64,000 nucleotides of DNA from an uncultured bacterium. GTDB taxonomy: Bacteria > Acidobacteriota > HRBIN11 > JAKEFK01. The notes below the pieces were generated by a model. The model saw nothing but the letters and a program-made list of their open reading frames with translations. It had not been told where the DNA came from and searched no databases. Position numbers and translations under genes: made by a program. The DNA lies in NCBI GenBank assembly GCA_963777505.1, contig CAVZQN010000004.1:1024001-1088000 (forward strand). Reading direction: 5' to 3'. How positions within the stretch are numbered: position 1 is the stretch's first letter; every line of letters begins with the position of its first letter. Of the stretch, positions 14,857-59,794 are shown piece after piece.

Positions 14857-14879
14857 TCTTTGTGTCTTTGCGGCAGTCA

Positions 14880-15034: not shown

Positions 15035-15083
15035 AAAGCAATTTAAATTTGCATTTCGATTTCCCAGAAATATTAGTTTCTAC

Positions 15084-16235: not shown

Positions 16236-16242
16236 AAATCCA

Positions 16243-17904: not shown

Positions 17905-18019
17905 TCTTTGAAGATTATTTTCGATTAAACGCTAAATCTAGATTGCCTATTAATGATACAGAGTATATTAATAGTGGGATGCAAGATAGATGTTTTGCCT
18001 CCATAGGGGGATGGAGTTT

Positions 18020-38543: not shown

Positions 38544-38560
38544 GATGCAGGAAAATAAGA
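38544..38560 (-). promoter_or_regulatory. Conserved leader element TCTTATTTTCCTGCATC (copy 1)
   Basis: Identical 17-mer at 43957-43973 in the leader of the paralogous receptor. Confidence 0.55.
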
Positions 38561-38625
38561 GTTTGGTTCGAAGTGGTGGAAGATCTTTTGCCCTTTTAAC
38601 AGTCCAACAGGTCTCACTGAAGAAA

Positions 38626-38634
38626 ATTATAGCA
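38626..38634 (-). promoter_or_regulatory. Extended -10 element (TGCTATAAT) of receptor 1
   Basis: GCGTGCTATAATT on the minus strand, repeated upstream of receptor 2. Confidence 0.65.
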
Positions 38635-38673
38635 CGCTATTCCTTTCCGCTTGCAACACACTTTTAACACCAA

Positions 38674-38690
38674 GTTTTACAATGTGAAAC
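38674..38690. promoter_or_regulatory. Palindromic operator-like site GTTTTACAATGTGAAAC
   Basis: Matches sites at 44087-44103 and 53869-53887. Confidence 0.6.
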
Positions 38691-38837
38691 GTAGGCTTAT
38701 CAGCTAGAGTCGCACAAAAATTAATGAAGATATTGCCTCATTCAACTCGTCGAAGTAATTGGACAAGACACAACCTGGGATTTAAGATTCATTTTCATAA
38801 CCATTGATTTGATTTCAAAACGTTGTTCCTGAAAACA

Positions 38838-41012
38838 ATGACCCGAAAAACAGTAATTGCACTTGTTACAGGCATTGCCTTAGTAACAGGCGCATATTTT
38901 TTCTGGAAACAGTCCTCAAGCAAAATTCAGCAATCTACGAGCAAAATTCAATCTGGCAATTTTAGTGAAGCCAACATCGTATTGATCACGATCGATACAC
39001 TTCGGGCTGATCATTTACCGGCTTACGGCTACGAAAAAATAAAGACGCCGTCCTTTGACCGTCTTGCTGCTGAGAGCATCCTTTTTGAAGATGCAGTAGC
39101 CCATGCTCCGATGACCCTTCCATCGCATGCTTCGATTCTGACCGGTTTGCTTCCGATCTCACACCGCGTGCACGATAACGCCGGCTTCATTCTGAACGCA
39201 AACATAACCACGCTTCCTGAAATTCTGAAGCAAAAAGGATATGTGACAGCGGCTTTTGTTTCTGCGTTTGTTCTCGATTCACAATTTAAGTTGGATCAGG
39301 GATTCGATCTTTATTCGGATGATCTGGCGCTGGCGGAAGCAAAAGTTTCTAGCATGGATCTATATAGACGTGCGGCGGATACTCAGTTGGAAGTCGAAGC
39401 CTGGCTTACGAAAAACAGCGATCGAAAGTTCTTTTTATGGATTCATTATTATGATCCTCATGATCCCTACGAACCGCCTGAACCATATCGCTCAAATTAC
39501 GCAAAGTCCTTATACGATGGTGAAATTGCGTATACAGATCAGGTGCTTGGACAGTTACTCAACCATCTCGATTCGTCCGGATTGAAAGAAAAAACGATTG
39601 TGGTACTGACAAGCGACCATGGAGAGGGATTGGGAGAACATCACGAACAAACGCATTCATTATTTATATATAACGCTACGCAGCATGTGCCATTGATGTT
39701 CCGGCTTCCGGGTGTTCCTGCAGGTAGAAGGAAAGAAGTTGTTGCGCATATCGATATTGCTCCTACTTTGTTGGACCTCATCGGAATCGCGCCAGATCCG
39801 GGAATGCAAGGAAGAACCCTGCGGGCTCAACTGAATGGCGAACAGCCTAATTCAAGATCTGTTTATGCAGAAAGCCGTCTGGCTGAATTACATTACGGCT
39901 GGTCTCCGCTGAGAAGCCTTACCACAACAGAGCATCGCTTTATCGAAGCGCCAACCGCTGAGTTATATGACCGCCGAACGGATCGATCAGAAACGAAAAA
40001 TATAGCCGATCAAAAACCGGAAATCGTTCAAACTCTCCGTAAAGAGTTAAACGTAATTCTTCAGACCAGTTCGCAATCGAATGCTGATCCCGGAAAAATA
40101 GATCCGGATACAGAGGAAAAGTTGAGAGCCCTTGGTTACGTTGGGACAACCGTAAAAAGCACTCCAGAGAGCCGGCGCAGCGATCCGAAAGATAAAATGG
40201 GAGTGTTGAATGCACTTAATGATGCGAAAAAGGCCAATGAATCTAAAAATTATCCGCTTGTTATCACCATTTTGACAGGGATTCTGCAGCAAGAACCGCA
40301 ACTTGTCGATGCTCACTACATGGCCGCAAACGCTCATTTACATTTGGGAAACACGGAACTCGCTTTGCAGGAATTTCTGACCGTGATCAAACTGAAACCG
40401 GATCATACGCAGACGCTATACAATCTGGGCTTTTTCTATCACGTGCAGGAAAATTTACAGGCCGCCGAATACTGGTATAAACAACTATTGAAGTATGAAC
40501 CGGAACACCTTTTTGGAAATCTCAATCTGGCAAGCTTATACAGGCAAAAAGGGGAGACGGAGAAAGCACAACCAATTGTGGAAAAGATTGTCAGTGATTA
40601 TGAACGATCTATTGAAACCGCAGCCTCACCTGAGATCCGCTCAAAATTGCTGGAAAAACTTTCTGAAATCCGTTTTAAAACCGGAGATACCGCGCAAAGC
40701 AAACTCGATCTAGAAGAATCGGTAAAAGCGGACAGCAAAAATTATCAGGCTTGGTGGAAGCTTGGCGCGCTTTATAGGCAGGAAAAAAGATTTCAGGATG
40801 CGATCCAATGCTTCGAAAAAGCAATCGAATTGAATGAGCAATTTTATCCCGCGTATTATTCTCTCTCAGCTTTATATCTTGCGACCGATACGAAACTGCA
40901 GGAAGCATTGCGTCTTGTAGAAAAAGCCAATGCAGAAGAAGGAACGAAGCAGGGAGAACAGATCCGTGCGGCAATTGTTGCGAAATTGCAACGGAAAAAG
41001 CAAGATCAATGA
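38838..41012 (+). CDS. Sulfatase-like (alkaline phosphatase superfamily) hydrolase/transferase with C-terminal TPRs
   Basis: N-terminal anchor, ITIDTLRAD, PMTLPSHAS, WIHYYDPH, SDHGEGLGEH, KLRALGY, TPR repeats. Confidence 0.9.
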   Translation: MTRKTVIALVTGIALVTGAYFFWKQSSSKIQQSTSKIQSGNFSEANIVLITIDTLRADHLPAYGYEKIKTPSFDRLAAESILFEDAVAHAPMTLPSHASILTGLLPISHRVHDNAGFILNANITTLPEILKQKGYVTAAFVSAFVLDSQFKLDQGFDLYSDDLALAEAKVSSMDLYRRAADTQLEVEAWLTKNSDRKFFLWIHYYDPHDPYEPPEPYRSNYAKSLYDGEIAYTDQVLGQLLNHLDSSGLKEKTIVVLTSDHGEGLGEHHEQTHSLFIYNATQHVPLMFRLPGVPAGRRKEVVAHIDIAPTLLDLIGIAPDPGMQGRTLRAQLNGEQPNSRSVYAESRLAELHYGWSPLRSLTTTEHRFIEAPTAELYDRRTDRSETKNIADQKPEIVQTLRKELNVILQTSSQSNADPGKIDPDTEEKLRALGYVGTTVKSTPESRRSDPKDKMGVLNALNDAKKANESKNYPLVITILTGILQQEPQLVDAHYMAANAHLHLGNTELALQEFLTVIKLKPDHTQTLYNLGFFYHVQENLQAAEYWYKQLLKYEPEHLFGNLNLASLYRQKGETEKAQPIVEKIVSDYERSIETAASPEIRSKLLEKLSEIRFKTGDTAQSKLDLEESVKADSKNYQAWWKLGALYRQEKRFQDAIQCFEKAIELNEQFYPAYYSLSALYLATDTKLQEALRLVEKANAEEGTKQGEQIRAAIVAKLQRKKQDQ

Positions 41013-41044
41013 CAGCGAAATCTGCTTTGCGTCTCTGCGGTAAT

Positions 41045-41083
41045 AAAAAAGGCGGTTCAGGAATTTTTCCTAAACCGCCTTTT
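41045..41083. terminator. Bidirectional intrinsic terminator
   Basis: AAAAAAGGCGGTT...AACCGCCTTTT between convergent genes. Confidence 0.8.
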
Positions 41084-41097
41084 GAAAAAAATCTGAA

Positions 41098-43923
41098 TTA
41101 GAAATCTACGCCTAAACCAATCTCAAGGCGTCGCGGTTGCGTCCATGTATCAACCACGATGATACCGCGGCGATACAGGGAATCTGTGAATGCCAGTTCC
41201 GTATCTGCGTTGAGTATGTTGTAGAAAGTTCCGGACAACTTGAACCCAAAGTCCGGACCAAGACTGAATCTCCGGCCTACGCCTATATCGATCGCTTTAA
41301 CCATACCCAGGCGGAAATCTCGTTCCGCGGTGATGGTTCTTGCTCCTTGATTCAGTATACTGCCAGGAACTCGAACCGGGCGGTTGTGGTATTTGCCGGA
41401 TTCAAAATCAGCCGTTACGGATCCCTGTAGCTTGCCGGGCAGATTAAAGAAGGCTGCCTGGATCCGGAACATATGTGGACGATCGCCCGCGAGGGGTCCG
41501 ACACTGTTTACATAATTGTTCGGATCGGACCCATCTGTTCCACCATAAAACGGATTGAATTGGATGGAGGAAAGTAGACGTGGTATCGTTCCTTCTGAAC
41601 GGGACCAGGTATAGTTCGCGTTCAACGCCCAGCTGTTTGCAAAGCGCTTCTCAAACGTGAGAAGAACAGCATCGTAATTCTGGAAATAATCCGGTGTTCC
41701 GCCTGCACAAGCGCTTCCACTCGGCATGATGCTGCAGAAATCTCCAGGATTGTTTCCTTTTGTCAGAATTGGCGATTCAACCACATTGAACAGCGTAAAA
41801 ACATTACTGGGATCTGCCGGATCCACAAATGTGACCGGCTCGTAGGCTCCGCCTAATATCTGCCATCCGATCAGGTCATCCGTATCCTTTCGTACATACT
41901 GGATCCCTGCTGACATATCTGTACCAAACTGTTGCTCATATCCGACCGAATACTGCAGGGTGCGAGGCGGATCCAGATTTGTATTGATTACTGTATTGTT
42001 AATGATTTCCCCGAAGGGGATATCAAATTGACCAGTGTCCGGATTAAACCCAAAAGAGAGTAGAGGAGAAAGTTCGGGTGGTGGATAGTCCCAATTCCCC
42101 GTGACATTGTGATCGTAATAAACTCCAACGGATCCTTGAATCTTCGATCTTCCATCCGATGTAGGTTGAAATACAAAACCGAACCTGGGTGACCACACAT
42201 TCCAGTCGACAACATCCACGCCGGGGATGGTGCCGCCCGCATCCGCAAAATTGCCGACAGGTGTGAGCGATGGAGTGCCAACAATTAGACGTTCATATTC
42301 CGGAATGGATCCGGCGTTGTGGTCGAATCTTAACCCGAAGTTCAGAGTCAACCGGTCATTGACTGTAATTGAATCGTCAAAGAAAATTCCGATTTCATTC
42401 GTATCGGCTCCGTATTGCCAGGGATCTTGAATGTAACGCGAGTAGGGAGCACCATAGTAAGTGTAAGTATAGAAGCCGTTTACTCCCAGGCCATTGATGG
42501 AAGTATTGTGTCCCACGGTGTACTGCACGCCGAATTTGAACTCATGCTCGCTGTTCAAAAAATTATCGGCATAATGAGTTGCTTTACCACGGAATGAATG
42601 TCTCCAGGTTTTGTATTCCCATGGATAATACGAGCCGCCTTGATAAATCGGTTCACCCGGCCCAGGCGCTATTTCGATTACCGGATCTTCAAAAGGAGCT
42701 TCAATGACCGAATCGTAAAGGTCCAGCGCATCCCAACCAGAGTATCCTGCTTCCAACAGTAGATTCTGGGAACGCGTAGAAGTCCAGGTTGCTCCCCATG
42801 CCTGTGTGTCTCCGCCTTCTCCAGTGAGCGCGGACAACTCAAAATCTGGTGTCAGAGTGTTGGGAGAATCCCAGTTTTCCCAGTGGAAGAATCCGGAAAT
42901 CTCATTGCTGTCATTGATCATCGCGCTAACTTTTCCACCATATTTATCGCTTTTATACGGGATTCCTTCCTGCAATTCTGGAAGGGTGCCAGGGGTGCTT
43001 GCAGTATCGCGGTACGTTTGAATACCACCATGGAACCACACTCTATCTTTAATGATTGGACCTCCAACACTACCAAAGATGTTCCGGTATTCGAGCCGCT
43101 CAAACGTTGCCGCTTCTTCGGGCACATCAGTCAATTCGATGTTGTCTCCCGTGAGACTGTCTGTCAGAATAAACCAATTGGCAGAGCCATTGATTTCGTT
43201 TCCACCTTTCTTTGTGACCACGTTAAACACGGCTCCTGTATGGTTGCCGTATTCGGCAGGGGCTCCCACACCAAGCACCTGAATTTCTTCAACCATATCG
43301 GAATTCACGCTGAACCAGACAGAACCTGTTTCCGGCGCAGAGAGATCCATTCCATCCACGTGCCATGCGTTCGATTGCTGATTCGATCCAAAAGCAATAG
43401 TACGATCGGATAATGCATCGCCGTAGCTTGCGGTTACTCCCGGAGCCATTTGCATCAAGGTAAATTGTGAATGTTGTGTTGGTACTTCTTCCAGTATTGC
43501 CCCTGAGTAACTTGTGCTTACACCTGATTCTTTAACATCGATCAACGGTGTTTCACCGATAACTGTTAATTCCTCAGCTGTTCCTTCCAAACCCATCGTA
43601 ACCGGGACATTTGCAGTCCCATCCAGAGAAACATTGACACGTTCCACATGGATCTTGGAAAAGCCGGTAAGTTCTAAGTCTACCGAATAAGTGCCAACCG
43701 GTAGAGAAGCAAAGCGGAAAACTCCCATTTCATTTGTTGTTACTGTACGTGTACCACTGATGATCGCTTTGCTGCTGATCGTAACATTCACACCAGGTAA
43801 CGGTTTGCCTTCCGGATCAAGAACAGTTCCTCGTATGTCACCACCGGTAACTTGTGCGAATGTTATCGCAGTAATTGCAACGAAGAAGAGCACAGATAGC
43901 GCTAATGTCAGTTTCTTAATCAT
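41098..43923 (-). CDS. TonB-dependent receptor 2 (paralog of 35676-38504)
   Basis: Same architecture; shares blocks such as DRTIAFGSN.QSNAW, AEYGNHTGAVFNVVTKKGGN, GVYYDHNV.GNWDYPPPEL, YTWSRSEG; C-terminal F. Confidence 0.9.
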   Translation of the reverse strand: MIKKLTLALSVLFFVAITAITFAQVTGGDIRGTVLDPEGKPLPGVNVTISSKAIISGTRTVTTNEMGVFRFASLPVGTYSVDLELTGFSKIHVERVNVSLDGTANVPVTMGLEGTAEELTVIGETPLIDVKESGVSTSYSGAILEEVPTQHSQFTLMQMAPGVTASYGDALSDRTIAFGSNQQSNAWHVDGMDLSAPETGSVWFSVNSDMVEEIQVLGVGAPAEYGNHTGAVFNVVTKKGGNEINGSANWFILTDSLTGDNIELTDVPEEAATFERLEYRNIFGSVGGPIIKDRVWFHGGIQTYRDTASTPGTLPELQEGIPYKSDKYGGKVSAMINDSNEISGFFHWENWDSPNTLTPDFELSALTGEGGDTQAWGATWTSTRSQNLLLEAGYSGWDALDLYDSVIEAPFEDPVIEIAPGPGEPIYQGGSYYPWEYKTWRHSFRGKATHYADNFLNSEHEFKFGVQYTVGHNTSINGLGVNGFYTYTYYGAPYSRYIQDPWQYGADTNEIGIFFDDSITVNDRLTLNFGLRFDHNAGSIPEYERLIVGTPSLTPVGNFADAGGTIPGVDVVDWNVWSPRFGFVFQPTSDGRSKIQGSVGVYYDHNVTGNWDYPPPELSPLLSFGFNPDTGQFDIPFGEIINNTVINTNLDPPRTLQYSVGYEQQFGTDMSAGIQYVRKDTDDLIGWQILGGAYEPVTFVDPADPSNVFTLFNVVESPILTKGNNPGDFCSIMPSGSACAGGTPDYFQNYDAVLLTFEKRFANSWALNANYTWSRSEGTIPRLLSSIQFNPFYGGTDGSDPNNYVNSVGPLAGDRPHMFRIQAAFFNLPGKLQGSVTADFESGKYHNRPVRVPGSILNQGARTITAERDFRLGMVKAIDIGVGRRFSLGPDFGFKLSGTFYNILNADTELAFTDSLYRRGIIVVDTWTQPRRLEIGLGVDF

Positions 43924-43956
43924 AACTACGCCCTCCAGATTGAAGAGATCTGCTTG

Positions 43957-43973
43957 GATGCAGGAAAATAAGA
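43957..43973 (-). promoter_or_regulatory. Conserved leader element TCTTATTTTCCTGCATC (copy 2)
   Basis: Identical to 38544-38560. Confidence 0.55.
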
Positions 43974-44037
43974 TTTACGGTTTGCAGTGGAAAAATTTTT
44001 TTCCTCGTTTAACGATTCTAAAGATCTTCTGACGAGA

Positions 44038-44046
44038 ATTATAGCA
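44038..44046 (-). promoter_or_regulatory. Extended -10 element (TGCTATAAT) of receptor 2
   Basis: GCGTGCTATAATT, as upstream of receptor 1. Confidence 0.65.
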
Positions 44047-44086
44047 CGCGATACATCTTCCATGTGCATCTTAGATGTAACACGAC

Positions 44087-44103
44087 ATTTTACAATGTGG
44101 AAC
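44087..44103. promoter_or_regulatory. Palindromic operator-like site ATTTTACAATGTGGAAC
   Basis: Same motif and nearly the same offset from the -10 element as at 38674. Confidence 0.55.
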
Positions 44104-44241
44104 GTAGCGCAATTTCTACTGCCAATCATGGCTTGTTTGGGACGAAACGGACTAAATTCGGTATGAACTTGTAAGCAAAAAATGTGTGATATTTTCAAAA
44201 ACCAAGAAAAAATCGGTTTCTCGGAAAAATAAAACGAACTT

Positions 44242-46197
44242 TTATTTTGATATCTTACAGAGTGAAGAGAGAAGTTCTAATTGATTACGATACAACTCCA
44301 TATCTTTAGGATTCTTAAGTTGGGTTGCCACTTCCAACCGGAGTTTTATTGCTTCGACTTCATAAGGCGATTTGAATAAAACTTTATCCAATATAGAAGC
44401 CGCATTTTGAAATTCTTTTGCATTTAAGTAGAGCTGACTAAGGGCTAATAAATCTTCTTTTTCTGCAACACCTTGTTTGTCAATTCTTGAATAATGTTCT
44501 ATCGCCTGATTGTGATCTCCCTTTTGAATTGCATCTTTAGCTTCCTGCCTAATTCGAAACGCCTGATTCATAATCGTCCATTCGTTTCGCTCTTCGGTTT
44601 TCAATTCTTCAAATCGCGTCATCGCCTTTAATGCTGCCGTTTCATTTTCTTCCCTTGTATAAATCAGACCAAGGTTGTAATAGACCTGCGAATTTTTTGG
44701 CGCCAGTTTTTCCACTTGAAGCAAATATTGTTTTGCTTTTTCAAAGTTGTTCTGATTCAGATACAAAACGCCAAGACTGTATAGAGTGTTAATGTTTTCA
44801 GGATGATTGGCTGCATGTTTTTCAAGAATTTCTCTCAGTTGAACAGAATCGGATGCAGTTAGTACAGCTAGAGCAAAGGAAGCAATATCTTCGGCAGCTT
44901 CAGGATTTTTTTCAATGGCTGATTCAAGAGCTTCCATTGCTTGTGAAATATCCATCTTTTCGTAATAAAGATTTCCTAAAGTTACGTATGCTGCTGCTTC
45001 CTGAAAGCCAAGTTCAATCGCGTGTTTACATGCTTCGATCGCTTCAGTTATCTTTCCTTTCTGCTTCAGAATTGTTGCCAGAATGTAATGAAGTGAAGCT
45101 TCTTCAGGCTTTGCACTGATTGCTTTTCGAATTGAGCATTCGGCTGCTTCATTGGCTTGCATATTTCTTGCGAGAATCGCAAGGCGAGTGGAAATCGCCG
45201 GAACATCGGAAAGCCATTGCATAAGCTGCTTATAAGTCGCCAGAGCCTCCCAATTTTTTTGCTGCTTTTCAGCTGCTTCAACTTGAATCAGCAAAGCGGG
45301 AACATGCATCGGTCTGTCTGCAATGATTTGCTGAGCGAGCTTTTCAGCCTCTTCAAAATTCTTCTGATTCAATGCATTCGAAGCGAGTGCCATAATCTGA
45401 ATCACACGAGGACTCAAGATTGAAAAATCAGGAATACTTTTTCCTGATTTCTTAAGAAAGAGATGGATCACAGGGTTTTGGTCATCAATGTGATAGGCGA
45501 TTTCCAATAATGCATCTGATTTGAAATGAATTCCTGCTGCAAGATAAGCGTCAGCGGAACCCAGGTTTTCTCCCAGTAAAATCTTGATGTTTTTGTCGGC
45601 TGCTGGTCCTCCTTTCATGGCGTGAATGAAGAGTCCTGCTGCTGTTGTTTCATCCATGCCTGACAGAATCTGTAGTGCGGTTTGGCGATTGTTTTGATAA
45701 ACAAAGACTTCCGCTAAAAGGAGTTCTGCTTCGCTGTCATTTACTCTTTGCAAATCTTCAATCGCAGGATCGAATTGGTTCAAAAATAAATTTGCGCGTG
45801 CACGCCATTGAATTGCCGGCAAAAAATTCGGAGAGGCTTTCAATGATTCATCAAAAGATTCACGTGCCTTTTCATATTGATGTTGAAGGAGTTGAGCTTT
45901 TCCAAGCAAATGCCATGCAAGATGGATCCGTTGAGGCTGCGAGGCAACTGCAATCTCAAGATGTTCTTGCGCGAGCTTCGCATCGCCTTGTTCCAGTGCA
46001 ATTTGACCAAGCATCAAGCGGGCAGGTCCATGTTTCGGTTCTTCCTTGATAATTTCTTCAAATAAAGCGGTGGCTGATGCAACATCACCTGAAGAAAACA
46101 CACGTAGAGCTTCTTGCATCTTTGCTGCGACACTTGATTGTGATGTGGCCGTGTTACAGAGAAGAATAACCGCAAAGGCTCGGAGAAAAACTCTCAC
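44242..46197 (-). CDS. Exported tetratricopeptide repeat protein
   Basis: Signal peptide; many TPR-like units (AWHLLGKA, AYVTLGNLY, TLYSLGVLY, VYYNLGLIY). Confidence 0.87.
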   Translation of the reverse strand: MRVFLRAFAVILLCNTATSQSSVAAKMQEALRVFSSGDVASATALFEEIIKEEPKHGPARLMLGQIALEQGDAKLAQEHLEIAVASQPQRIHLAWHLLGKAQLLQHQYEKARESFDESLKASPNFLPAIQWRARANLFLNQFDPAIEDLQRVNDSEAELLLAEVFVYQNNRQTALQILSGMDETTAAGLFIHAMKGGPAADKNIKILLGENLGSADAYLAAGIHFKSDALLEIAYHIDDQNPVIHLFLKKSGKSIPDFSILSPRVIQIMALASNALNQKNFEEAEKLAQQIIADRPMHVPALLIQVEAAEKQQKNWEALATYKQLMQWLSDVPAISTRLAILARNMQANEAAECSIRKAISAKPEEASLHYILATILKQKGKITEAIEACKHAIELGFQEAAAYVTLGNLYYEKMDISQAMEALESAIEKNPEAAEDIASFALAVLTASDSVQLREILEKHAANHPENINTLYSLGVLYLNQNNFEKAKQYLLQVEKLAPKNSQVYYNLGLIYTREENETAALKAMTRFEELKTEERNEWTIMNQAFRIRQEAKDAIQKGDHNQAIEHYSRIDKQGVAEKEDLLALSQLYLNAKEFQNAASILDKVLFKSPYEVEAIKLRLEVATQLKNPKDMELYRNQLELLSSLCKISK

Positions 46198-47906: not shown

Positions 47907-48012
47907 AACAGACTATTAGAGCCCTACTGTAACATCGAGATTAGGGAAAAGAAATCTTTACATTTACGCTATTCGAAACGGCCGTTTTTTTACCACAGAG
48001 TCACAGAGAAGT

Positions 48013-51462: not shown

Positions 51463-51511
51463 TGATGAACCTAAACTTTAGCATTGAGCTTTTGGAAAAG
51501 GAATGTGCATT

Positions 51512-51607
51512 AAGGCCCGGCCCTGCGGATATGGGGTGCGAGGGCCGGGCCTTTGTTTGTGAATTGAGGCTCGGCTTTCGAACCCCACCACCGCAAAGCC
51601 GAGCCTC
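51512..51607. repeat. Two inverted 42-nt hairpins with compensatory stem substitutions
   Basis: 51512-51553 AAGGCCCGGCCCT-GCGGATATGGGGTGCG-AGGGCCGGGCCTT; reverse complement of 51566-51607 is GAGGCTCGGCTTT-GCGGTGGTGGGGTTCG-AAAGCCGAGCCTC. Confidence 0.7.
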
Positions 51608-51652
51608 GACTAAGGTAGTCAAATACTCCTCAAAGGCCTAGTTTTTATAACG

Positions 51653-52240
51653 ATGAGATTTTGGTTTGCAATTTTGATCATTTGTCTTTTCCCAATAACG
51701 CTGCTGGCTGATGATACAGATGTCTGGAATCTTCATCTTTTTGGTGGTGGCGTTACATACTGCGATGAAGATGGATGTTTTGGTCCGACTGGTGTCGCTT
51801 TTGGTGGGACTTTCGGTAGAAGCATAAACGAGCGGCTGAGTCTTGAGGGCGAATTTACATATGCCTGTACGTGGGAAGATCTGGAACCGCAAATCGATCC
51901 CGTAACGGGCGCTTCATATATAACAGAGCTCGAACGAGAAAGGATTTGGTCCGGCGGATCTCTTTTGATTCGTTTAAGCGATCCAGAAGTTAGGTCTGAC
52001 TTTTATGCAATCATCGGTGCCGTCGGTGCGCACGAAGTACAAAAGAGAGTGCCACCAGAAGGAATTCCTGCACCTCCTGATGTCGATACCAGTATTCGTT
52101 TTGGAATTGCAACCGGGGTTGGTTACAACTGGTGGTTTGCGGAAAATTGGGGAATACGTCCTGAAGCCCGATTCTACTGGATTTTTCAGGATGATCTTTC
52201 AGCGTTGCGATACACTGCAGGCCTATTACGCAGATTTTAA
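51653..52240 (+). CDS. Outer membrane beta-barrel protein (8-strand type)
   Basis: Signal peptide; alternating beta-strands (LSLEGEFTY, GVGYNWWF, GIRPEARFY); C-terminal F. Confidence 0.75.
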   Translation: MRFWFAILIICLFPITLLADDTDVWNLHLFGGGVTYCDEDGCFGPTGVAFGGTFGRSINERLSLEGEFTYACTWEDLEPQIDPVTGASYITELERERIWSGGSLLIRLSDPEVRSDFYAIIGAVGAHEVQKRVPPEGIPAPPDVDTSIRFGIATGVGYNWWFAENWGIRPEARFYWIFQDDLSALRYTAGLLRRF

Positions 52241-52792
52241 CTATTGAATCGGCTCTGTTCGCCAGGTTCCTTGAATGATGTAAGTTGTATCTACGTATCC
52301 ACCTTGATTAAGATCCAAAGGTTCACAGGACCATGTACCGGAACCAATACCTGCTTCATTAACAAATCCATCAAAACTTGACATAGCGCGCCAAAAACGC
52401 CCATCGGCAGTTCTATTAATAGGAATCAAAAGATTCAATATTCCTGTTTGTGTCAACAACTGCGCTTGAACTTCTCCAAAGACATCTGCATGAAATGCGA
52501 ATCCCGCGCCAGTTTCATCAAGGATTCTACGGAACACCTCACCGCCATGAACACCTGCATAGTTTACAGACTGCTGACTCCGGCCGGTTTCATTTCTCAA
52601 TTCAAAGATCAAGTCGAGGCTGCAGTTAATAACAAATCCATCCGGTTGTGTACTTTCAGCTTCCCCTGTCAGTCTGAATTGTGTTGGTAAATTTTGAACG
52701 ATCTGGGGTGCGACAACTGAATCATTGTTGCATCCAGATAAGAAAACGGTTGATGCTAAAAGAAGAAGAATCAAGATGCGCGAAAAAATCAT
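52241..52792 (-). CDS. Hypothetical lipoprotein
   Basis: Hydrophobic leader ending in an LSGC lipobox. Confidence 0.7.
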   Translation of the reverse strand: MIFSRILILLLLASTVFLSGCNNDSVVAPQIVQNLPTQFRLTGEAESTQPDGFVINCSLDLIFELRNETGRSQQSVNYAGVHGGEVFRRILDETGAGFAFHADVFGEVQAQLLTQTGILNLLIPINRTADGRFWRAMSSFDGFVNEAGIGSGTWSCEPLDLNQGGYVDTTYIIQGTWRTEPIQ

Positions 52793-52910
52793 TGGCAACG
52801 TCCTTTTGTTTATTGGATACGAATCGTTGCCCGGGCAGCCAACGAACTTTAATCGTGCCGTACAACACAGAGTGCTGTCAAGACCAAATCCTCTGTTTCT
52901 CTGTGGTGAA

Positions 52911-53798
52911 TTAGTGCTCCGGAAAATAGAAGGCTTTTTGGAAGCGGACTTTCAGCTCTGGGTTTTTGGTTCGGATTTGAATTTCCGGCTTTTGATCCTT
53001 TGAGTAATCACTGGTGGATTGATAATACAAAGTAATCCGATGCGCGAGATCCGTTGCGATTTTTTCGTACGCAGCTTTTAATCTTGGAAAATCATCTTCC
53101 AAAACAAAATGAGTCCCACCGGTTTGTTCAGCCAATTTGTACATAACATATAAATCAGCTCCGCCTTTTTGAAGAATTAATGAATAGATCAAAGTCTTAT
53201 TCTGTTGAGCCGTTCGAATCACATCTGATAAATCGTACTTGCCCAAAGAGTTTACGCCATCAGAAATGAGGAATACGGCTCGTTGAGGGTGGGCCGATTG
53301 CTTCAACCTGTTGAGTCCCGACATCAAACCTTCATATAAACGTGTGCGCTCTCCATAACGTAGTGAAAGAAAATCAGGAGGAACTGCTTTTGAGGCAATT
53401 TGCATTTCATGAGTCATTTTGACTTTGTCATCAAACGTCATCACAAAAAATTCATCTTCAGGTTTCAATGAGCTTACAAAGTCTTTTGCAGCACGCCCGA
53501 TTCGAAGAAACTGCGATTGCATGCTGCTGCTCGTATCGACAATGATTCCGATTGAAAATGGCTGGCGTTGTAGTTCGAGATCCAAAACTTGTTGATTGAT
53601 TCCATTTTCAAAAACAAGAAAATCTTCGGGCGCTAAATCTGTATAAAAATTATTGGATCGATCAATGACTGATATCTGCAATTCAACGACTTGAACCTCA
53701 ACATCGTACTCAAGTTGCTTCGGTGTTGTTGCGACTTGCGAGGCGGGCAGGTTGTGGAAGCTGGCAAACAAAAGTGCAATTGTGATGAAGTACTTCAT
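52911..53798 (-). CDS. Exported VWA domain protein (acidobacterial type)
   Basis: DLAPEDFLVFENG, MIDAS DTSSS, TRLYE, ISDG, LAEQTGG. Confidence 0.87.
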   Translation of the reverse strand: MKYFITIALLFASFHNLPASQVATTPKQLEYDVEVQVVELQISVIDRSNNFYTDLAPEDFLVFENGINQQVLDLELQRQPFSIGIIVDTSSSMQSQFLRIGRAAKDFVSSLKPEDEFFVMTFDDKVKMTHEMQIASKAVPPDFLSLRYGERTRLYEGLMSGLNRLKQSAHPQRAVFLISDGVNSLGKYDLSDVIRTAQQNKTLIYSLILQKGGADLYVMYKLAEQTGGTHFVLEDDFPRLKAAYEKIATDLAHRITLYYQSTSDYSKDQKPEIQIRTKNPELKVRFQKAFYFPEH

Positions 53799-53868
53799 AC
53801 TACTGCCTTCTATACCTATTATTTAATCAGAAAACTAGAAATCTACTGCATTCTTGGAATATCCTCCT

Positions 53869-53919
53869 TGTTTCACATTGTGAAACATCGTTTCAATATT
53901 TTGAGGTGTATGTTAAGAT
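53869..53919 (+). promoter_or_regulatory. Palindromic operator TGTTTCACATTGTGAAACA, a weaker adjacent site, and an extended -10 (TGTTAAGAT)
   Basis: 9-1-9 perfect inverted repeat at 53869-53887; GTTTCAATATTTTGAG at 53890-53905; TGnTAAGAT at 53911-53919, upstream of the methyltransferase operon. Confidence 0.65.
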
Positions 53920-53970
53920 TTAGAGCACAACCACAAAGCTCGCGAAGCTTCGTGGTTTATAAAGGGGTCC

Positions 53971-55428
53971 ATGCGTCCAACTATCACTGTTTTAGAAAAG
54001 AATTTAATTGAGCAGATCATCGACCAGGCTTTCATCGTTCTGGAGAAGAGCGGTGTTCACATCGAAGATGAGCACGCGCTTAAGAAGCTTGAAAAAATAG
54101 GGCTTACTTCTGATAAAGAAACGAATCGTGTCACATTTCCCCGGAAGGTCGTTGAAAAAGCTATCTCGGATGCGCCATCTTCAATCACCTTGTATGATCG
54201 TGATGGCACTGAAGTAACAAAGCTTGAAGGGGACAATGTCCATTTTGTTCCAGCTTCATCCGCTTTGCGGATTTTGGATCGTAAGACTCAAAAGGTCAGA
54301 AATCCGAATACACCCGATTTCGTTGAATATGTAAAACTGGCTGATGGTTTGAAAAACATTGCTTATCTTTCCACGGCATTCATTCCGAAAGACATTCCGC
54401 AGGACATGGCTGATGCATGGCGTCTTTATCTTGTGCTTTCCCATTCGAAGCGTCCAATTGTTTCTGGCGCATTCACATCATATGGTGTGCCGCGAATGGG
54501 TGAGGTTATGGCGATGTTTCGGGATGGGAAGGAAGATTTAATTAAACGTCCGATGTCCATTTTTACATGTTGTCCGAATACACCATTGCGTTGGGGTGAA
54601 GATCCGATTGCAAACATTATGGATTGTGCAGAATGGGGAATTCCAATCGAAATTGTTCCCGTTCTGTTATTGGGAATGATTTCGCCGGCAACGACAATTG
54701 GTGCTCTTGTGCTTCACACAGCAGAAGTTCTTTCTGGTCTCACGATTGCTCAGATTGTTCGGCCAGGATCGCCCGTCGTTTTTGGCGGCGCTCCTGCATC
54801 ATTTCATATGCAGTTAATGACGAATCCGATGACGGCTGTTGAAGCTTTACAAATGTATTGCGGTTATGCGCAGGTTGCAAAACATTTGAAATTGCCATGC
54901 CAGGCTTACATGGCATTATCTGATTCAAAATTTAATGATCCGCAAGCAGGAATGGAAACAGGTGTCGGAGCATTCCTTGCAGCGTCTGCCGGATTCAATT
55001 CTATTTCAGGTCCGGGGATGCTGGATTACGTAAATTGTTTCAGCTTAGAAAAACTTGTTTTTGATGATGAAGTCGTCGCACATGCAAAACGTTTTGTGCG
55101 TCCGGTAGAAGTTCGAGATGATCTTCCTGCCGCCGATTTAATTGCTGAACTTGTTCGTGAAAAACATCTCTTAACTTCAGAACATACATTGCAGCACTGG
55201 CCTGAAGAATTGTATTTGCCTGGTCCGATGGTTGACCGCACAAATTGGGATCAATGGGAAGATCAAGGTTCGCGCGATTGGCGTAAACGTGCCAATGAAA
55301 TTATTGATGAATTATTAGCGGGATATGAAGTAGAACCGCTGGATGAAAAAATTCATAAGGAAATTCAAGATCTTTTCCATCGCACCTGTTCTGATAAAGA
55401 TGCGAAATTTCCTTCTTTCACGGAGTGA
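53971..55428 (+). CDS. Trimethylamine methyltransferase (MttB) superfamily protein, non-pyrrolysine
   Basis: AFIVLEKSGV, P.TT.GALV...AEVLSGL...Q..RPG.PV..GG, LSDSKFNDPQAGME, GPGMLD...FSLEKLV.D.E. No in-frame amber codon. Confidence 0.9.
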   Translation: MRPTITVLEKNLIEQIIDQAFIVLEKSGVHIEDEHALKKLEKIGLTSDKETNRVTFPRKVVEKAISDAPSSITLYDRDGTEVTKLEGDNVHFVPASSALRILDRKTQKVRNPNTPDFVEYVKLADGLKNIAYLSTAFIPKDIPQDMADAWRLYLVLSHSKRPIVSGAFTSYGVPRMGEVMAMFRDGKEDLIKRPMSIFTCCPNTPLRWGEDPIANIMDCAEWGIPIEIVPVLLLGMISPATTIGALVLHTAEVLSGLTIAQIVRPGSPVVFGGAPASFHMQLMTNPMTAVEALQMYCGYAQVAKHLKLPCQAYMALSDSKFNDPQAGMETGVGAFLAASAGFNSISGPGMLDYVNCFSLEKLVFDDEVVAHAKRFVRPVEVRDDLPAADLIAELVREKHLLTSEHTLQHWPEELYLPGPMVDRTNWDQWEDQGSRDWRKRANEIIDELLAGYEVEPLDEKIHKEIQDLFHRTCSDKDAKFPSFTE

Positions 55429-56108
55429 ATATGGTTGATTACGCTGTCATGAACCAATTGTTGTTTGAGGGAAAGCATGAACCCGTCAAAAAGATGACTG
55501 AAGATGCACTCGCGGAAGGTCGAACGCCTATGGAAGTTCTCGATGAGGGACTGATTGCGGGTATGCGTGTTGTCGGTGAAGACTTCAAACACAATCGTGT
55601 TTTCGTACCGGAAGTTCTTTTAGCAGCACGCGCAATGAAAGCTGGAATGGCTGTATTGAAGCCATTACTGATCGAACGGAATGATGATTCGAGTAAATCA
55701 TCGGCTGTCATCGTGATGGGTACAGTAAAAGGCGATCTTCATGACATTGGAAAGAATCTTGTGGGAATGATGGCTGAAGGCGCTGGATTTACGATCGTAG
55801 ATTTAGGAACAGATACTTCCGCTGAAAAATTTATTGCAGCAGTTCGTGAACACGGTGCGCGCATTATGGGCATGAGTGCTTTGTTAACAACAACGATGGT
55901 TTATATGCGGACAGTTGTTCAAAAAGTCCGTGAAACCGACCTGAATGTAAAAATTTGTATCGGGGGAGCGCCTACCAGTTCCGATTGGGCAACTGAAATC
56001 GGAGCCGACGGTTATGCGGCCGATGCATCCAGTGCAGTTGAATTATTCCACCGGTTAATCGCAGAACAGGATGCAGAGCAGGTTCAACAAAAAGTAGCCG
56101 CTTCGTGA
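55425..56108 (+). CDS. Cobalamin-binding corrinoid protein (MttC/MtbC-like)
   Basis: B12 cap (FVPEVLLAARAMKAG), GTVKGDLHDIGKNLV (DxHxxG), SALLTTT, IGGA. Confidence 0.93.
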   Translation: MNMVDYAVMNQLLFEGKHEPVKKMTEDALAEGRTPMEVLDEGLIAGMRVVGEDFKHNRVFVPEVLLAARAMKAGMAVLKPLLIERNDDSSKSSAVIVMGTVKGDLHDIGKNLVGMMAEGAGFTIVDLGTDTSAEKFIAAVREHGARIMGMSALLTTTMVYMRTVVQKVRETDLNVKICIGGAPTSSDWATEIGADGYAADASSAVELFHRLIAEQDAEQVQQKVAAS

Positions 56109-57757
56109 TCATGACTACCGCTCAACCGTCCCGAACTACCTCCAAAGTCACAATCGATGGAGTCGAAGGTACCGCCGAAGTTGGGACAACACTTTTTGAT
56201 TTCGCTGAATCGGTTGGCATCAATGTTCCTACCTCCTGCTTCAAACAGGGCAAATGTCGCGAATGTCTCGTTGAAGTCGAAGAAGGATCGGAATTATTAA
56301 GTCCTCCTGCTCCGCAAGAGAGTCATCTTGGAGGAAAATTCCGTCTTGCTTGCAGAACAACACTTGACGTTGCTGGTGAAGTTTTGTGCCACACGCTCAA
56401 GCGCGGCACACTCAGGATTGAAACAGAAACTCAAGGCTTGTCTGAACTAAATGACACGCTGGATCCGGCTGTTACTCGCGACGGTTCGCACATTCTCCTT
56501 GATGGAGAAATCATTTCCGATTCAGGCGGTCCGATTCACGGAATCGCAATCGATATTGGGACTACGACAGTAGCCTTGCGTCTTTACAATCTAGAGAGCG
56601 GACAACGTATCGCAACTCAGTCGTTTGAAAACCCGCAGCGATTCGGCGGATCCGATATCATGGCTCGCATCCGTTTTGATGGCGAACAGCGCGGAAAATT
56701 ATTACAACGCACTTTATTAGGATATCTTACCCGGGCAATCATGGATTTACCGGTCGATCCAAACACAATTTATGAAGCCGTTGTTGCCGGCAATCCAACA
56801 ATGCGTGATCTCTTTTTCGGATTGGATGTTCAAGGCATCGGCGTAATTCCTTATCGATCCACTACAGAAGTTGCTTTTCATGAAGGTCGTTCTGAAACTA
56901 CAAGCCTTACTTTAACCGGCAGACGGCTCAGGCTTCCGATTCATCCTGATGCGCGCGTTTATGGTTTGCCAATCATCGCAAGTCATGTCGGTTCAGATGC
57001 CGCTGCGTGCGTACTTGCAACAGGTCTTGCGCAACGTGAAGAGATTTGCGCAATTCTGGATATCGGAACGAACACAGAAGCTTTCATTGGTAATCGCGAT
57101 CATATTATGGCTGCATCTTGTCCGGCCGGTCCGGCTTTCGAAGGTGGCGGCGTGACATTTGGTATGTCAGCACTGGATGGTGCGATTGAGCGCATCCATA
57201 TAAATGAAGAAGGAATCGCTGAAATTCATGTAATCGGCGATGGAGTTCCTGCCGGAATTTGTGGTTCGGGTCTTGTCGATTTACTTTCTGAACTTCGACG
57301 AACAAATCGCATGAACGAACAGGGAAGATTTCTGGATGACATTTCAGCTTTTACTGTAAATCAGAAACCGGACCTGTTTTTGAGTGAATCCGATATTAAT
57401 GAACTCGCGCAAGCAAAAGGCGCCAATGCTGCAGGTCTTCGAGTTCTGGGTGAGAATTATGGTATTTCGATGGATCGGATCGATAAACTTTATCTTGCTG
57501 GCGGATTTTCACGCCACATCGATGTCGATGCAGCCTGCAGAATCGGACTCGTTCCTGATCTTCCGCGTGAACGCATTCAAAAAATAGGGAATGCTGCGTT
57601 GCATGGTGCATCGATTGCTCTGCTTTCACGAACAAAACGCAAAGAACTGGAACAGATTGTAAAGCGCATTGAGCATGTTCGGCTTGAAACGCATCCACGG
57701 TTTTTTGATTTTTTCGTTGAAGGATGTCAATTTGCACCTTTTGGTCATACTGCATGA
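56105..57757 (+). CDS. ASKHA-family ATP-dependent corrinoid reductive activator with N-terminal 2Fe-2S domain (RACo/RamA-like)
   Basis: C...GKCRECLV...RLAC, IDIGTTT, GNPTM, HVGSD, DIGTNTE, SCPAGPAFEG, GICGSG, LAGGF, GNAAL. Confidence 0.9.
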   Translation: MIMTTAQPSRTTSKVTIDGVEGTAEVGTTLFDFAESVGINVPTSCFKQGKCRECLVEVEEGSELLSPPAPQESHLGGKFRLACRTTLDVAGEVLCHTLKRGTLRIETETQGLSELNDTLDPAVTRDGSHILLDGEIISDSGGPIHGIAIDIGTTTVALRLYNLESGQRIATQSFENPQRFGGSDIMARIRFDGEQRGKLLQRTLLGYLTRAIMDLPVDPNTIYEAVVAGNPTMRDLFFGLDVQGIGVIPYRSTTEVAFHEGRSETTSLTLTGRRLRLPIHPDARVYGLPIIASHVGSDAAACVLATGLAQREEICAILDIGTNTEAFIGNRDHIMAASCPAGPAFEGGGVTFGMSALDGAIERIHINEEGIAEIHVIGDGVPAGICGSGLVDLLSELRRTNRMNEQGRFLDDISAFTVNQKPDLFLSESDINELAQAKGANAAGLRVLGENYGISMDRIDKLYLAGGFSRHIDVDAACRIGLVPDLPRERIQKIGNAALHGASIALLSRTKRKELEQIVKRIEHVRLETHPRFFDFFVEGCQFAPFGHTA

Positions 57758-58509
57758 TTCCATCAACATTTTATTCACTGAAAGGCGAAGAAATTACGGC
57801 TGCAATAAAACCCAAGGAATATTTGCGGCTGCTTGGTTTGCCTCGCAGCCATACTTTGGAAGGCGCAATGCTGGAACGTGCGCAAACTGCACGTTCCTGG
57901 TATATACGTTATGGAAAACCATTTGCAGCATCAAGAAGAGTTGATTTACAAAAAATAGATTCTCCGAAAGTTCAGCTTTCCAGCGGACACGAATTGAATA
58001 GCGCTGCTCTTGCGTATCGCTTAAACAATGGCGACGCTCATGCATTGATGATTATTGCAGCAAGTGCAGGACAAGAAGTCGCAAAAGAAGTTGCGCGGCT
58101 TTGGGCTGAAGGAAAACCGGATGAAGCATTTTTTCTAGATCGCTTAGCGGTTGCAGTTGCTGAACATTTAGTTTTTCATTCTGCAGGAGAACTTTGCCGC
58201 TCGAGTGAACCTGTCAATGAAACTTTAATGCCGCATCTTTCACCCGGTTGTGGGACCTGGGATCTTTCGGATCAACATAAACTGATGGAACTCCTGGCAG
58301 GATCTGACAGCGGTGAGCTGGGTCCATTGAAGATGTTGTCTTCAGGAGCTATTGAACCGCAGCATTCGGTACTTGCTGTGATGGGCGTTACGCATCGCAA
58401 TTTTGCCTTCACTCCTGAACATCTTTGCCGGAGTTGTGATCTGAGTCCTTGTGCATTTCGTAGAGCCCCATTCTCAAGCGAATTATTTCAATCGATGGAT
58501 ACACAATGA
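57754..58509 (+). CDS. Stand-alone methionine synthase activation-domain-like protein
   Basis: AFFLDRLAVAVAE, LSPGCGTWDLSDQ, MLSSGAIEPQHSVLAVMG, C-terminal CxxCxxxxCxFR; ATGA coupling to the upstream gene. Confidence 0.75.
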   Translation: MIPSTFYSLKGEEITAAIKPKEYLRLLGLPRSHTLEGAMLERAQTARSWYIRYGKPFAASRRVDLQKIDSPKVQLSSGHELNSAALAYRLNNGDAHALMIIAASAGQEVAKEVARLWAEGKPDEAFFLDRLAVAVAEHLVFHSAGELCRSSEPVNETLMPHLSPGCGTWDLSDQHKLMELLAGSDSGELGPLKMLSSGAIEPQHSVLAVMGVTHRNFAFTPEHLCRSCDLSPCAFRRAPFSSELFQSMDTQ

Positions 58510-59402
58510 AGCGATCGAATCTACTTGAAGCAATACAAACACGCGTTCTGCTGAGTGATGGAGCAATGGGTACACAGCTTCAGTATGCCGGACTTGAATC
58601 CGGTGGTTGCGGTGAAGCATGGAACCTGGATCATCCCGAACGTATTTTGAAAATTCAACGAGCCTACGTTGAAGCAGGGTCTGATTGTTTACTTACAAAT
58701 ACTTTTGGCGCCTGTCGAATCATGTTGAACCGTCATGATGAAGGAGAACGAACGGTTGAGATTAATCGTGCCGCTGTGGCAATTGCGCGTGAAGCACTGG
58801 GCGAAAACGGTTTTGTGCTTGGCGATATCGGCCCATTTGGTGGTTTGATGGAACCGTATGGGGAAATTCAACGCGCGGATGTAGAGTCCGCTTTTCGTGA
58901 ACAAGCCAAAGCACTGATTGATGGTGGAGCGGATGCAATCATCATTGAAACACAAACTGCACTTGAAGAACTTGAAATCGCTATTGAAGCAGCCAAAGAA
59001 GCCGGCGCGCCGTGCATCATAGGATCAGTCGCGTTCGATCGAATGCTGGATGAAGATGATGTCCGCACCATGATGGGAATTAGTCCTGAACAGGCAGCAC
59101 AATTTATGGCTGAGCACGGATGTCACATTGCTGCGCTCAATTGTGGAACAGGTGTTGATATGCGTGTGGCTGCGAATATTGTAGAAAGATATCGTAAGAC
59201 CGGCGGCCTACCAGTGATGGCGCAGCCGAATGCAGGGCAGCCTGTCTTAATCAATATGAAGGTGCTATACAATGAAACGCCTGAAGAAATGGCAGCTGGA
59301 CTTCCTGGAGTGCTTGCTGCTGGCGCACGAATTGTAGGCGGTTGCTGCGGAAGTACGCCAGATCACATCCGCCTTTTTAGAAAAATAATGAATAATGCGT
59401 AA
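58506..59402 (+). CDS. Homocysteine S-methyltransferase domain protein
   Basis: DGAMGTQL, YVEAGSD.LLTNTFG, GADAIIIET, LNC, QPNAG.P, GGCCGSTPDHI (zinc-binding cysteines). Confidence 0.93.
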   Translation: MKRSNLLEAIQTRVLLSDGAMGTQLQYAGLESGGCGEAWNLDHPERILKIQRAYVEAGSDCLLTNTFGACRIMLNRHDEGERTVEINRAAVAIAREALGENGFVLGDIGPFGGLMEPYGEIQRADVESAFREQAKALIDGGADAIIIETQTALEELEIAIEAAKEAGAPCIIGSVAFDRMLDEDDVRTMMGISPEQAAQFMAEHGCHIAALNCGTGVDMRVAANIVERYRKTGGLPVMAQPNAGQPVLINMKVLYNETPEEMAAGLPGVLAAGARIVGGCCGSTPDHIRLFRKIMNNA

Positions 59403-59455
59403 TACGTAATTAGCTCTCAGCTATCAACGTAATTACGAATTACAGATTACGGAAT
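59402..59455. repeat. Degenerate heptamer-period repeat (ATTACGA-like)
   Basis: ...ACGTAATTACGAATTACAGATTACGGA in the intergenic gap. Confidence 0.4.
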
Positions 59456-59461
59456 AGAAAA

Positions 59462-59794
59462 ATGAGAGTTACGATACCTGTAGACCAAGCACTTGCTGAT
59501 TCACATCTTCCTGAAAACAAGGCTGATGGCTCCGGTGTGGGAGTGAATTATGCCGATCAAATCTTAAAGCCTTTTAAGATGACTCTTGAAGATGGTCGTA
59601 AAATGATGGCCAAACGGAAAGGTTTAAAGATTACGATCACGATCGGCGACAAGCAGGGTGAAGCGATCTTGCGCCGGCTGGATCATGGTCCTGAAGTAAA
59701 GGAAATGTTCAAAAAAGCGCTCGAGGAAGCTGCTAGAAATGTCGGCGCATCAGTTACTTTTGAAACCGGGGCTATCCATCTGGATTATGATTAA
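59462..59794 (+). CDS. Hypothetical protein, 110 aa
   Basis: Clean ORF with typical composition, directly downstream of the corrinoid operon; no motif recognised. Confidence 0.7.
   Translation: MRVTIPVDQALADSHLPENKADGSGVGVNYADQILKPFKMTLEDGRKMMAKRKGLKITITIGDKQGEAILRRLDHGPEVKEMFKKALEEAARNVGASVTFETGAIHLDYD

Follow-up and report, generated by a model that had tools for sequence, protein, structure and literature searches.

A palindromic operator shared by two Oar-like TonB-dependent receptor genes and a B12-dependent methyltransferase operon predicts a candidate regulon in an uncultured acidobacterium

In the available excerpts of a survey of IclR-family transcription factors (PMC8222616), group 1 operators have the consensus GKTYCRYW3-4RYGRAMC and group 2 operators the consensus TGRAACA-N1-2-TGTTYCA, the commonest group 1 subgroup being GTTYCRYW3RYGRAAC ("GTT-11-AAC"; 54 orthologous groups and 1364 sites). 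In three-box sites, such as those of PcaU, PobR, and HmgR, one pair of boxes forms a group 1 site and the overlapping pair a group 2 site. These factors generally control themselves and one or two adjacent operons, their sites typically lie 20-80 nt upstream of the start codon, and related factors can recognize different motifs. The other described system of relevance is the split methionine synthase and glycine-betaine methyltransferase set MtgB/MtgC/MtgD/MtgE of Ruegeria pomeroyi and Phaeobacter, as presented in the available portion of PMC12478193. Here we report a 17-base palindrome common to three promoters, those of two outer-membrane receptor genes and of a B12-dependent methyl-transfer (mttB) operon, in a 64,000-nucleotide stretch of the genome of an uncultured acidobacterium (assembly GCA_963777505.1, contig CAVZQN010000004.1, positions 1,024,001 to 1,088,000; hereafter, the window).

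All three palindromes are intergenic, the intergenic DNA amounting to 4.9 kb or 7.7% of the window. Their sequences and coordinates are those given in the initial annotation of the window, which had also singled out the third one as perfect; its core is GTTTCACATTGTGAAAC (53870-53886). The operators and the genes behind them are as follows.

38674..38690, minus strand: operator 1, GTTTTACAATGTGAAAC on the forward strand and GTTTCACATTGTAAAAC on the TBDR1 strand
44087..44103, minus strand: operator 2, ATTTTACAATGTGGAAC on the forward strand and GTTCCACATTGTAAAAT on the TBDR2 strand
53869..53887, plus strand: operator 3, TGTTTCACATTGTGAAACA, with perfect 9+9 arms flanking one central base
35676..38504, minus strand: TBDR1, a 942-aa Oar-like TonB-dependent receptor with CarboxypepD_reg, Plug, and OMP_b-brl_4 domains
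41098..43923, minus strand: TBDR2, a 941-aa Oar-like TonB-dependent receptor
53971..59794, plus strand: mttB operon of six genes, described from Pfam/NCBIfam domains and conservation over loci

The three operators are present and non-random. Over 14 arm positions, the window holds three matches with at most one mismatch versus 0.017 expected, and four with at most two mismatches versus 0.72 expected; the observed count was reached in none of the 60 first-order Markov simulations that served as the chance model for arm matches. A looser scan allowing three mismatches gave 12 matches against 5.97 expected, a number reached in 2 of 100 shuffles. With a position weight matrix (PWM), the three operators scored 21-30 bits, by construction, versus 8.5 bits or less elsewhere in the 64-kb window. 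Two further matches were treated as background, one at 17189, the fourth of the arm matches, which scores only 8.5 bits and lies inside the coding frame of an MFS transporter, and one at 2961, at the start of a hicB-like small open reading frame (ORF). A literature search found no occurrence of the exact 15-mer, and no paper bringing together IclR, MttB, and betaine.

On the receptor side, the TBDR1 and TBDR2 proteins are only 57% identical, so the duplication that gave rise to them is old. Their upstream DNA was compared over 301 aligned columns, with 40 shuffled alignments as a control, in which the longest identical run was 9. Outside conserved islands, the identity was 43% versus 50% for the aligned shuffles, and the only identical runs longer than 9 nt were CACATTGTAAAA (12 nt, with CTACGTT, 7 nt, before it), the -10 box (13 nt), and an element in the leader (17 nt). 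The features of the two receptor promoters are listed below.

38625..38637, minus strand: extended -10 box of TBDR1, GCGTGCTATAATT, identical with the TBDR2 copy at 13/13 positions
44037..44049, minus strand: extended -10 box of TBDR2, GCGTGCTATAATT
38665..38670, minus strand: third box GTGTTA of operator 1, 3 nt promoter-proximal of the palindrome, an identical run in the alignment
44078..44083, minus strand: third box GTGTTA of operator 2, 3 nt promoter-proximal of the palindrome
38544..38560, minus strand: 17-nt leader element of TBDR1, TCTTATTTTCCTGCATC, identical in both leaders at 17/17 positions
43957..43973, minus strand: second copy of the 17-nt leader element, in the TBDR2 leader, TCTTATTTTCCTGCATC
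44202..44224, minus strand: terminator-like hairpin that ends the TPR/FG-GAP operon upstream of TBDR2

Since the receptor genes are on the minus strand, the GCGTGCTATAATT boxes are the reverse complement of positions 38625-37 and 44037-49. The centre of the palindrome lies 51 bp upstream of the TATAAT hexamer at TBDR1 and 52 bp upstream at TBDR2, in agreement with the earlier claims of identical extended -10 boxes and of a one-base difference in their distance from the operator. The palindrome was kept although the surrounding upstream DNA is no more alike than the shuffles, so that duplication alone is insufficient, as had been argued, and the palindrome is supported as a putative transcription-factor operator rather than a duplication relic. 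By itself, the 6-nt identical run GTGTTA does not exceed what chance would give, the mean run in the shuffles being 6.2. The terminator-like hairpin closes the upstream TPR/FG-GAP operon, and TBDR2 therefore has its own promoter. The receptor leaders (roughly 115 nt) have diverged around TCTTATTTTCCTGCATC, for which the window contains three matches with at most three mismatches versus 0.34 expected; this element could be bound by a small RNA or a protein. Rfam returned no match at gathering thresholds for the whole window, including TCTTATTTTCCTGCATC, and the receptor leaders folded no better than shuffles (z of +2.1 and -0.36), by which an RNA element or riboswitch was ruled out.

On the methyltransferase side, operator 3 lies in a 172-bp divergent region between a gene of the acidobact_VWFA family (the VWA gene, 52911-53798, minus strand) and mttB (53971-55428, plus strand). 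A search for MttB in one genome per species gave 68 loci, the source genome not being among them, and the upstream DNA was inspected at 63 of these; L016, L032, L055, L063, and L065 were dropped because the match lacked the N-terminus. The operator was found upstream of mttB in 2 of the 63 loci, L001 (9930-9946) and L002 (9944-9960), with at most one arm mismatch and 41-70 bp upstream of mttB. These loci represent the closest relatives (MttB 87% and 86% identical) and the lowest G+C content among the loci (44% and 52%; the window has 44%). The expectation of motif conservation upstream of orthologs was thus borne out for mttB in L001 and L002 and failed for mttB in L003, that is, it stood in two of the three closest relatives. 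The further features of this promoter region are as follows.

53890..53895, plus strand: third box GTTTCA, overlapping the -35 position, with GTTT-N-A invariant in the window, L001, and L002
53911..53919, plus strand: putative extended -10 box of the mttB operon, TGTTAAGAT, with the hexamer starting 36 bp after the operator centre
52911..53798, minus strand: VWA gene (acidobact_VWFA family), transcribed away from mttB and possibly a secondary target of operator 3

Invariant in the window, L001, and L002 is GTTTCAC..T.TGAAAC, followed by 2-3 nt and then by GTTT-N-A, with differing flanks; the third half-site after the palindrome is the weaker tandem site that had been noticed before. In other loci, L059 and L060 carry only a half-site-like GTGAAAC, and L034 has an arm match with two mismatches about 5.4 kb downstream of mttB. 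By eye, -10-like boxes were recognized 35 bp after the operator centre in L001 (TGATAAAAT) and 36 bp after it in L002 (AACAAT, with TTGACT as -35); the consensus promoter scanner did not call the mttB -10-like boxes. An alternative mttB promoter with the left arm as -35 (TTCACA-17-AATATT) was rejected, since it is conserved neither in L001 nor in L002. Extended -10 boxes of the GTGCTA.. type occur just upstream of mttB in L005, L006, L008, L038, and L052, which fits GCGTGCTATAATT as a promoter element in this bacterial group. The VWA ortholog (67% identical) is divergent from mttB in L001 and absent in L002, in which the divergent gene encodes a beta-lactamase-family protein. Because L002 keeps the site without the VWA gene, operator 3 belongs to mttB. 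Together, the two comparisons show selection on the operators in paralogs (the receptors) and in orthologs (mttB).

The window mttB leader also contains a hairpin at 53925-53955 (11 of 12 pairs, AACCACAAAGCT…AGCTTCGTGGTT) just before the ribosome-binding site; the shorter leaders of L001 and L002 lack this hairpin.

At the DNA level, and at that level only, the operators resemble IclR sites. The GTT-11-AAC subgroup consensus of the excerpted survey (PMC8222616) is matched at 17/17 positions by the window mttB site GTTTCACATTGTGAAAC and by the L002 site, at 16/17 by L001 and TBDR1, and at 15/17 by TBDR2, while a scan of the window with the general IclR consensus gave one exact match and one match with one mismatch. 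At mttB, the right arm and box 3, TGAAACA-T-CGTTTCA, match the group 2 consensus at 13/14 positions with N1 (12/14 in L001); the spacing of this pair is one base shorter in L002, and the receptor GTGTTA box, shifted by 2 nt, gives a poorer group 2 fit. This published consensus, together with the candidate three-box layout, bears out the initial suggestion of an IclR-type operator. As far as the excerpts of the survey describe group 1 and three-box sites of the PcaU, PobR, and HmgR type, the likeness extends to the 17-bp layout, the third half-site at mttB, and the location upstream of catabolic or transport genes; in contrast to those group 1 sites, there is no adjacent IclR gene here, no autoregulatory site was seen, and the receptor sites are unusually far from the start. 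The host is acidobacterial, a phylum missing from Table 2 of the survey. A further IclR-like palindrome, GGTCCGCAAACCGGACA (GTCCG-N5-CGGAC), lies at 30793-30809 in intergenic DNA upstream of an S9 peptidase gene.

KdgR is an IclR-family factor with dispersed targets, including outer-membrane channels. Its box in gamma-proteobacteria (RWWGAAACGNCGTTTCAKKA, Table 1 in the excerpts of PMC8222616) is resembled by box 2 plus box 3 of the mttB site, GAAACATCGTTTC, which agrees with the core at 12/13 positions. In contrast, the biology of KdgR is pectin use, and the dominant element here is the opposite half-site pairing (group 1).

We propose, with a probability of about one half, that the three sites would be operators of one sequence-specific dimeric or tetrameric factor, most likely of the IclR family, which is encoded outside the window and would control a single small regulon. 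Each operator would consist of three boxes, an inverted repeat of the GTTTCAC-N3-GTGAAAC type followed by a promoter-proximal third half-site, and their orientation relative to transcription is the same in the receptor and mttB promoters. With the -10 hexamer taken as -12 to -7 and the starts presumed accordingly, the receptor operators would be centred at about -63 with box 3 near -50, and the mttB operator at about -47 with box 3 on the -35. The receptor arrangement, with its perfect extended -10 and poor -35, would fit activation, and that of mttB either class-II activation or repression. We infer the single factor for all three sites, its family, the transcription starts, the sign of regulation, and any effector.

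Several observations weigh against this proposal. The mttB footprint rests on three genomes: there is no operator upstream of mttB in L003, in which MttB is 84% identical and the G+C content 53%, nor in the other 60 loci (56-74% G+C). The degenerate IclR consensus with at most two mismatches is not enriched in the window (6 matches versus 3.4 expected). The operator to -10 distance is 16 bp longer at the receptors than at mttB, about 1.5 helical turns, so the three promoters need not respond in the same direction, and the position of the third box differs by 2 nt from one promoter family to the other. A G-to-A change in the proximal arm is common to both receptor sites and absent from the three mttB sites, which makes two related factors possible. 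Relative to the start codon, the operator centre lies at -93, -63, and -49 for mttB in the window, L001, and L002, and at -178 and -172 for TBDR1 and TBDR2, the receptor values being outside the -20 to -80 zone given as typical in the survey excerpts. The transcription starts are guesses, the consensus promoter scanner having called none of these promoters. HTH_IclR or IclR domains were found neither among the window ORFs scanned (46 + 7), as had been stated for the window before, nor among those scanned in L001 and L002 (23 + 9; two 21-kb loci), so that the adjacency described for IclR regulators in the excerpts of PMC8222616 is not seen at these loci.

The shared arm deviation of the receptor sites, found in 0/3 mttB sites, would also be expected if two or more paralogous regulators acted here, one on the receptors (…GTAAAA arm, about -63) and another on mttB (…GTGAAAC arm, about -47), with no single regulon. 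As this explanation would have it, the distances to the third box and to the -10 are not the same in the two promoter families, and related factors with different motifs are known from the survey excerpts (PMC8222616). Yet TBDR1 and the mttB core agree at all but 1 of 17 positions, a closeness of match expected about 0.017 times per window, and the three-box layout and orientation are alike in both families, which leaves separate paralogous regulators a possible but doubtful explanation. The palindrome could instead be the site of a global regulator of carbon, nitrogen, or starvation responses, in which case the motif would be frequent and no shared pathway would be implied. Global nutrient control typically acts on receptors, hydrolases, and methylamine use, the sites have no cognate regulator gene next to them, and the receptor genes and mttB are unlinked in other genomes; against this, no site besides the three promoters exceeds 8.5 bits in 64 kb, 43 kb of L001 and L002 contain no second site, and the motif fits a family whose members usually have small regulons according to the same excerpts (PMC8222616). 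We consider a global regulator unlikely; together with paralogous regulators, it is the chief alternative to the single regulon.

The position of operator 3 in a 172-bp divergent region, the second acidobact_VWFA paralog beside the TBDR1 cluster, and the distance of only 33 bp between the L001 site and the VWA start all speak for operator 3 as a control element of the VWA gene instead of mttB, with a regulon restricted to envelope proteins (Oar-like receptors and acidobact_VWFA). This is very improbable, given that the L002 site lies 41 bp upstream of mttB at a locus with no VWA gene, that the distance to the mttB -10-like box is constant at 35-36 bp in three genomes, and that no site precedes the paralog VWA320. 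It is hardly conceivable that the resemblance is due to chance or that the palindrome is non-regulatory, for example, a repeat element: a one-mismatch arm match does occur in the coding frame at 17189, but 0.017 such matches are expected per window, paralogs and two further genomes have kept the site, and the palindrome has neither a T-run nor a repeat-family structure.

Other regulator classes were considered and set aside. CRP/FNR-type sites read TGTGA-N6-TCACA or TTGAT-N4-ATCAA and were ruled out, as the half-site order here is TCACA-N1-TGTGA. LysR-type sites combine a T-N11-A box near -65 with a divergent LysR gene; T-N11-A can be read in the palindrome and the receptor position of about -63 fits, but this class was ruled out by the absence of a LysR gene from the window and by the mttB position of about -47. 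By eye, neither a sigma-54 nor an extracytoplasmic function (ECF) promoter fits the motif. As for the candidate factors in the window, the palindromes found upstream of TetR (3265-3897) and ArsR (28524-28826) themselves are unrelated ones, and the window encodes no DNA-binding partner for its histidine kinases. A MEDS-domain hybrid histidine kinase is encoded in the L002 operon (14678-16744), between the reactivation genes and the homocysteine methyltransferase; a tblastn search with it gave only weak matches to the kinase core and receiver, in L002, L021, L014, and the window, and a comparable MEDS kinase was found neither in the window nor at any other locus. A link through this kinase, which is present in the operon of L002 only, was rejected. 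The 110-aa protein of the mttB operon was excluded as a hidden regulator by its structural model (predicted local distance difference test, pLDDT, of 90.6), which has no helix-turn-helix and no DNA-binding fold.

The mttB operon encodes, in this order, an MttB-family methyltransferase, an MtgC-like corrinoid protein, a RACo/RamA-type reductive activator, a 261-aa unknown protein, a homocysteine S-methyltransferase, and a 110-aa unknown protein. Pfam domains include MTTB (274 bits), B12-binding and B12-binding_2, three RACo domains, and S-methyl_trans (211 bits). The methyltransferase gene has no in-frame stop, and its best solved relatives are nearly tied (glycine betaine methyltransferase, 180 bits; trimethylamine methyltransferase, 171 bits). 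The NCBIfam MtgC models scored 188-197 bits versus cut-offs of 310-370, and trimeth_pyl 338 versus 525. Across the 68 loci, many of which are truncated, the corrinoid protein was found in 64, RACo in 59, the homocysteine methyltransferase in 50, and both unknown proteins in 49. The 261-aa protein has a weak, non-significant match to a methionine-synthase chain (E 0.24). The 110-aa protein (59462-59794) carries an almost invariant DGSGVGVNY motif and has a confidently predicted alpha/beta fold; it had no fold match (best E 0.03, TM 0.25 or less) or sequence match in PDB, and no match in Pfam, NCBIfam, or ESM Atlas.

The operon thus holds an MtgBC(D)E-type set composed of an MttB-family enzyme, a corrinoid protein, a reductive activator, and a homocysteine module, and contains no pterin-binding MtgD module. 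As the available portion of PMC12478193 describes the MtgBCDE system, both have a pfam06253 methyltransferase and a RamA/RACo-type reactivator, with the corrinoid protein and the homocysteine-binding module each separate; unlike that system, the genes here form one operon, which lacks MtgD and includes two conserved unknown proteins (261 and 110 aa). The same portion of the paper describes no operator and has no mention of IclR. From its domains and this comparison, the operon looks like one for substrate-to-corrinoid-to-homocysteine transfer, in line with the methyl transfer toward methionine suggested in the initial annotation; the methyl groups of some methylamine or quaternary amine would pass to the corrinoid protein and on to homocysteine. 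The MFS transporter of the window (16243-17904), whose coding frame includes a one-mismatch copy of the palindrome arms (17189-17203), has homologs (46% identical) that directly adjoin the mttB operon in L059 and L060 (about 17050-18570), and it may therefore carry the substrate of the mttB operon.

The Oar-type TonB-dependent receptors of Myxococcus have an N-terminal carboxypeptidase-regulatory-like domain, a plug, and a large barrel, and TBDR1 and TBDR2 share this architecture at about 940 aa. Both were classified as Oar-like by their CarboxypepD_reg domain, plug, and large barrel, and their scores fell far short of the cut-off for each of the curated siderophore, haem, and SusC models. Two sulfatase-fold genes flank TBDR1.

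33583..35572, minus strand: sulfatase-fold/TPR gene directly downstream of TBDR1, in two frames (35156-35572 and 33583-35289)
38823..41012, plus strand: gene for a membrane-anchored sulfatase-fold/TPR protein, divergent from TBDR1, with the nucleophile motif T-L-P-S-H

The 35156-35572 frame encodes a signal peptide and also has T-L-P-S-H; the split of this gene reflects either a frameshift or a sequencing error. Formylglycine sulfatases have the nucleophile signature C/S-x-P-x-R. The T-L-P-S-H motif aligns to S-G-P-S-R of a solved sulfatase, with Thr and His at positions where sulfatases have Cys or Ser and Arg, and the match to the choline sulfatase model TIGR03417 (145 bits versus a cut-off of 433 bits) is insufficient, the arylsulfatase cut-offs also being far from reached. 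Judged by these motifs, the proteins are probably not sulfatases, and the proposed hydrolysis of a choline or other quaternary-amine sulfate was not borne out. Within the alkaline-phosphatase superfamily, Thr as the nucleophile suggests that phosphoryl and not sulfuryl groups are transferred.

Of the 68 loci, 4 have an Oar-like receptor gene close to mttB and 6 a sulfatase-TPR gene, both at 25-37% identity, and 1 has the VWA ortholog. With so few occurrences there is no conserved receptor or sulfatase neighbourhood at mttB, and the pathway of import, periplasmic hydrolysis, and demethylation put forward in the initial annotation found no backing in these loci. The shared operator is the only link between the receptor and mttB loci, and the nutrient pathway attached to it is unsupported. 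It is quite improbable that, in this low-GC lineage, a single effector-sensing IclR-type regulator with a distant gene couples outer-membrane uptake by Oar-like receptors, which are paired with Thr-nucleophile alkaline-phosphatase-superfamily/TPR enzymes, to B12-dependent demethylation of a quaternary amine directly onto homocysteine. If true, the coupled uptake and demethylation would be a hitherto undescribed route leading to methionine, for example, from phospho-esters of choline or of a similar head group, and Oar-like receptors would for the first time have a defined regulon and substrate class.

Next to nothing has been learned so far about how uncultured Acidobacteriota-like soil bacteria control transcription or about the cargo of their very numerous Oar-like receptors. 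Taken alone, the result is an ordinary regulon prediction by comparative genomics, with an IclR-like palindrome of a familiar type and no new mechanism, and as a new regulon prediction of known type it is credible. The shared operator provides a handle, namely bait for a DNA pull-down, a PWM for regulon reconstruction, and a testable prediction of co-regulation.

Apart from the sulfatase-fold gene, two-frame genes are the S9 peptidase (30894-32500), the MEDS histidine kinase (17990-19823), and the Lhr helicase (22030-26249) in the window, and RACo in L002 (12288-13913); the cause is either frameshifting in pseudogenes or the kind of indel error that is typical of some assemblies. The window also contains a hicA/hicB-like small toxin-antitoxin-like pair at about 2880-3185, and L001 has, at about 8417-9043, a short antitoxin-like ORF and a 143-aa ORF between a DUF2339 gene and the VWA gene.

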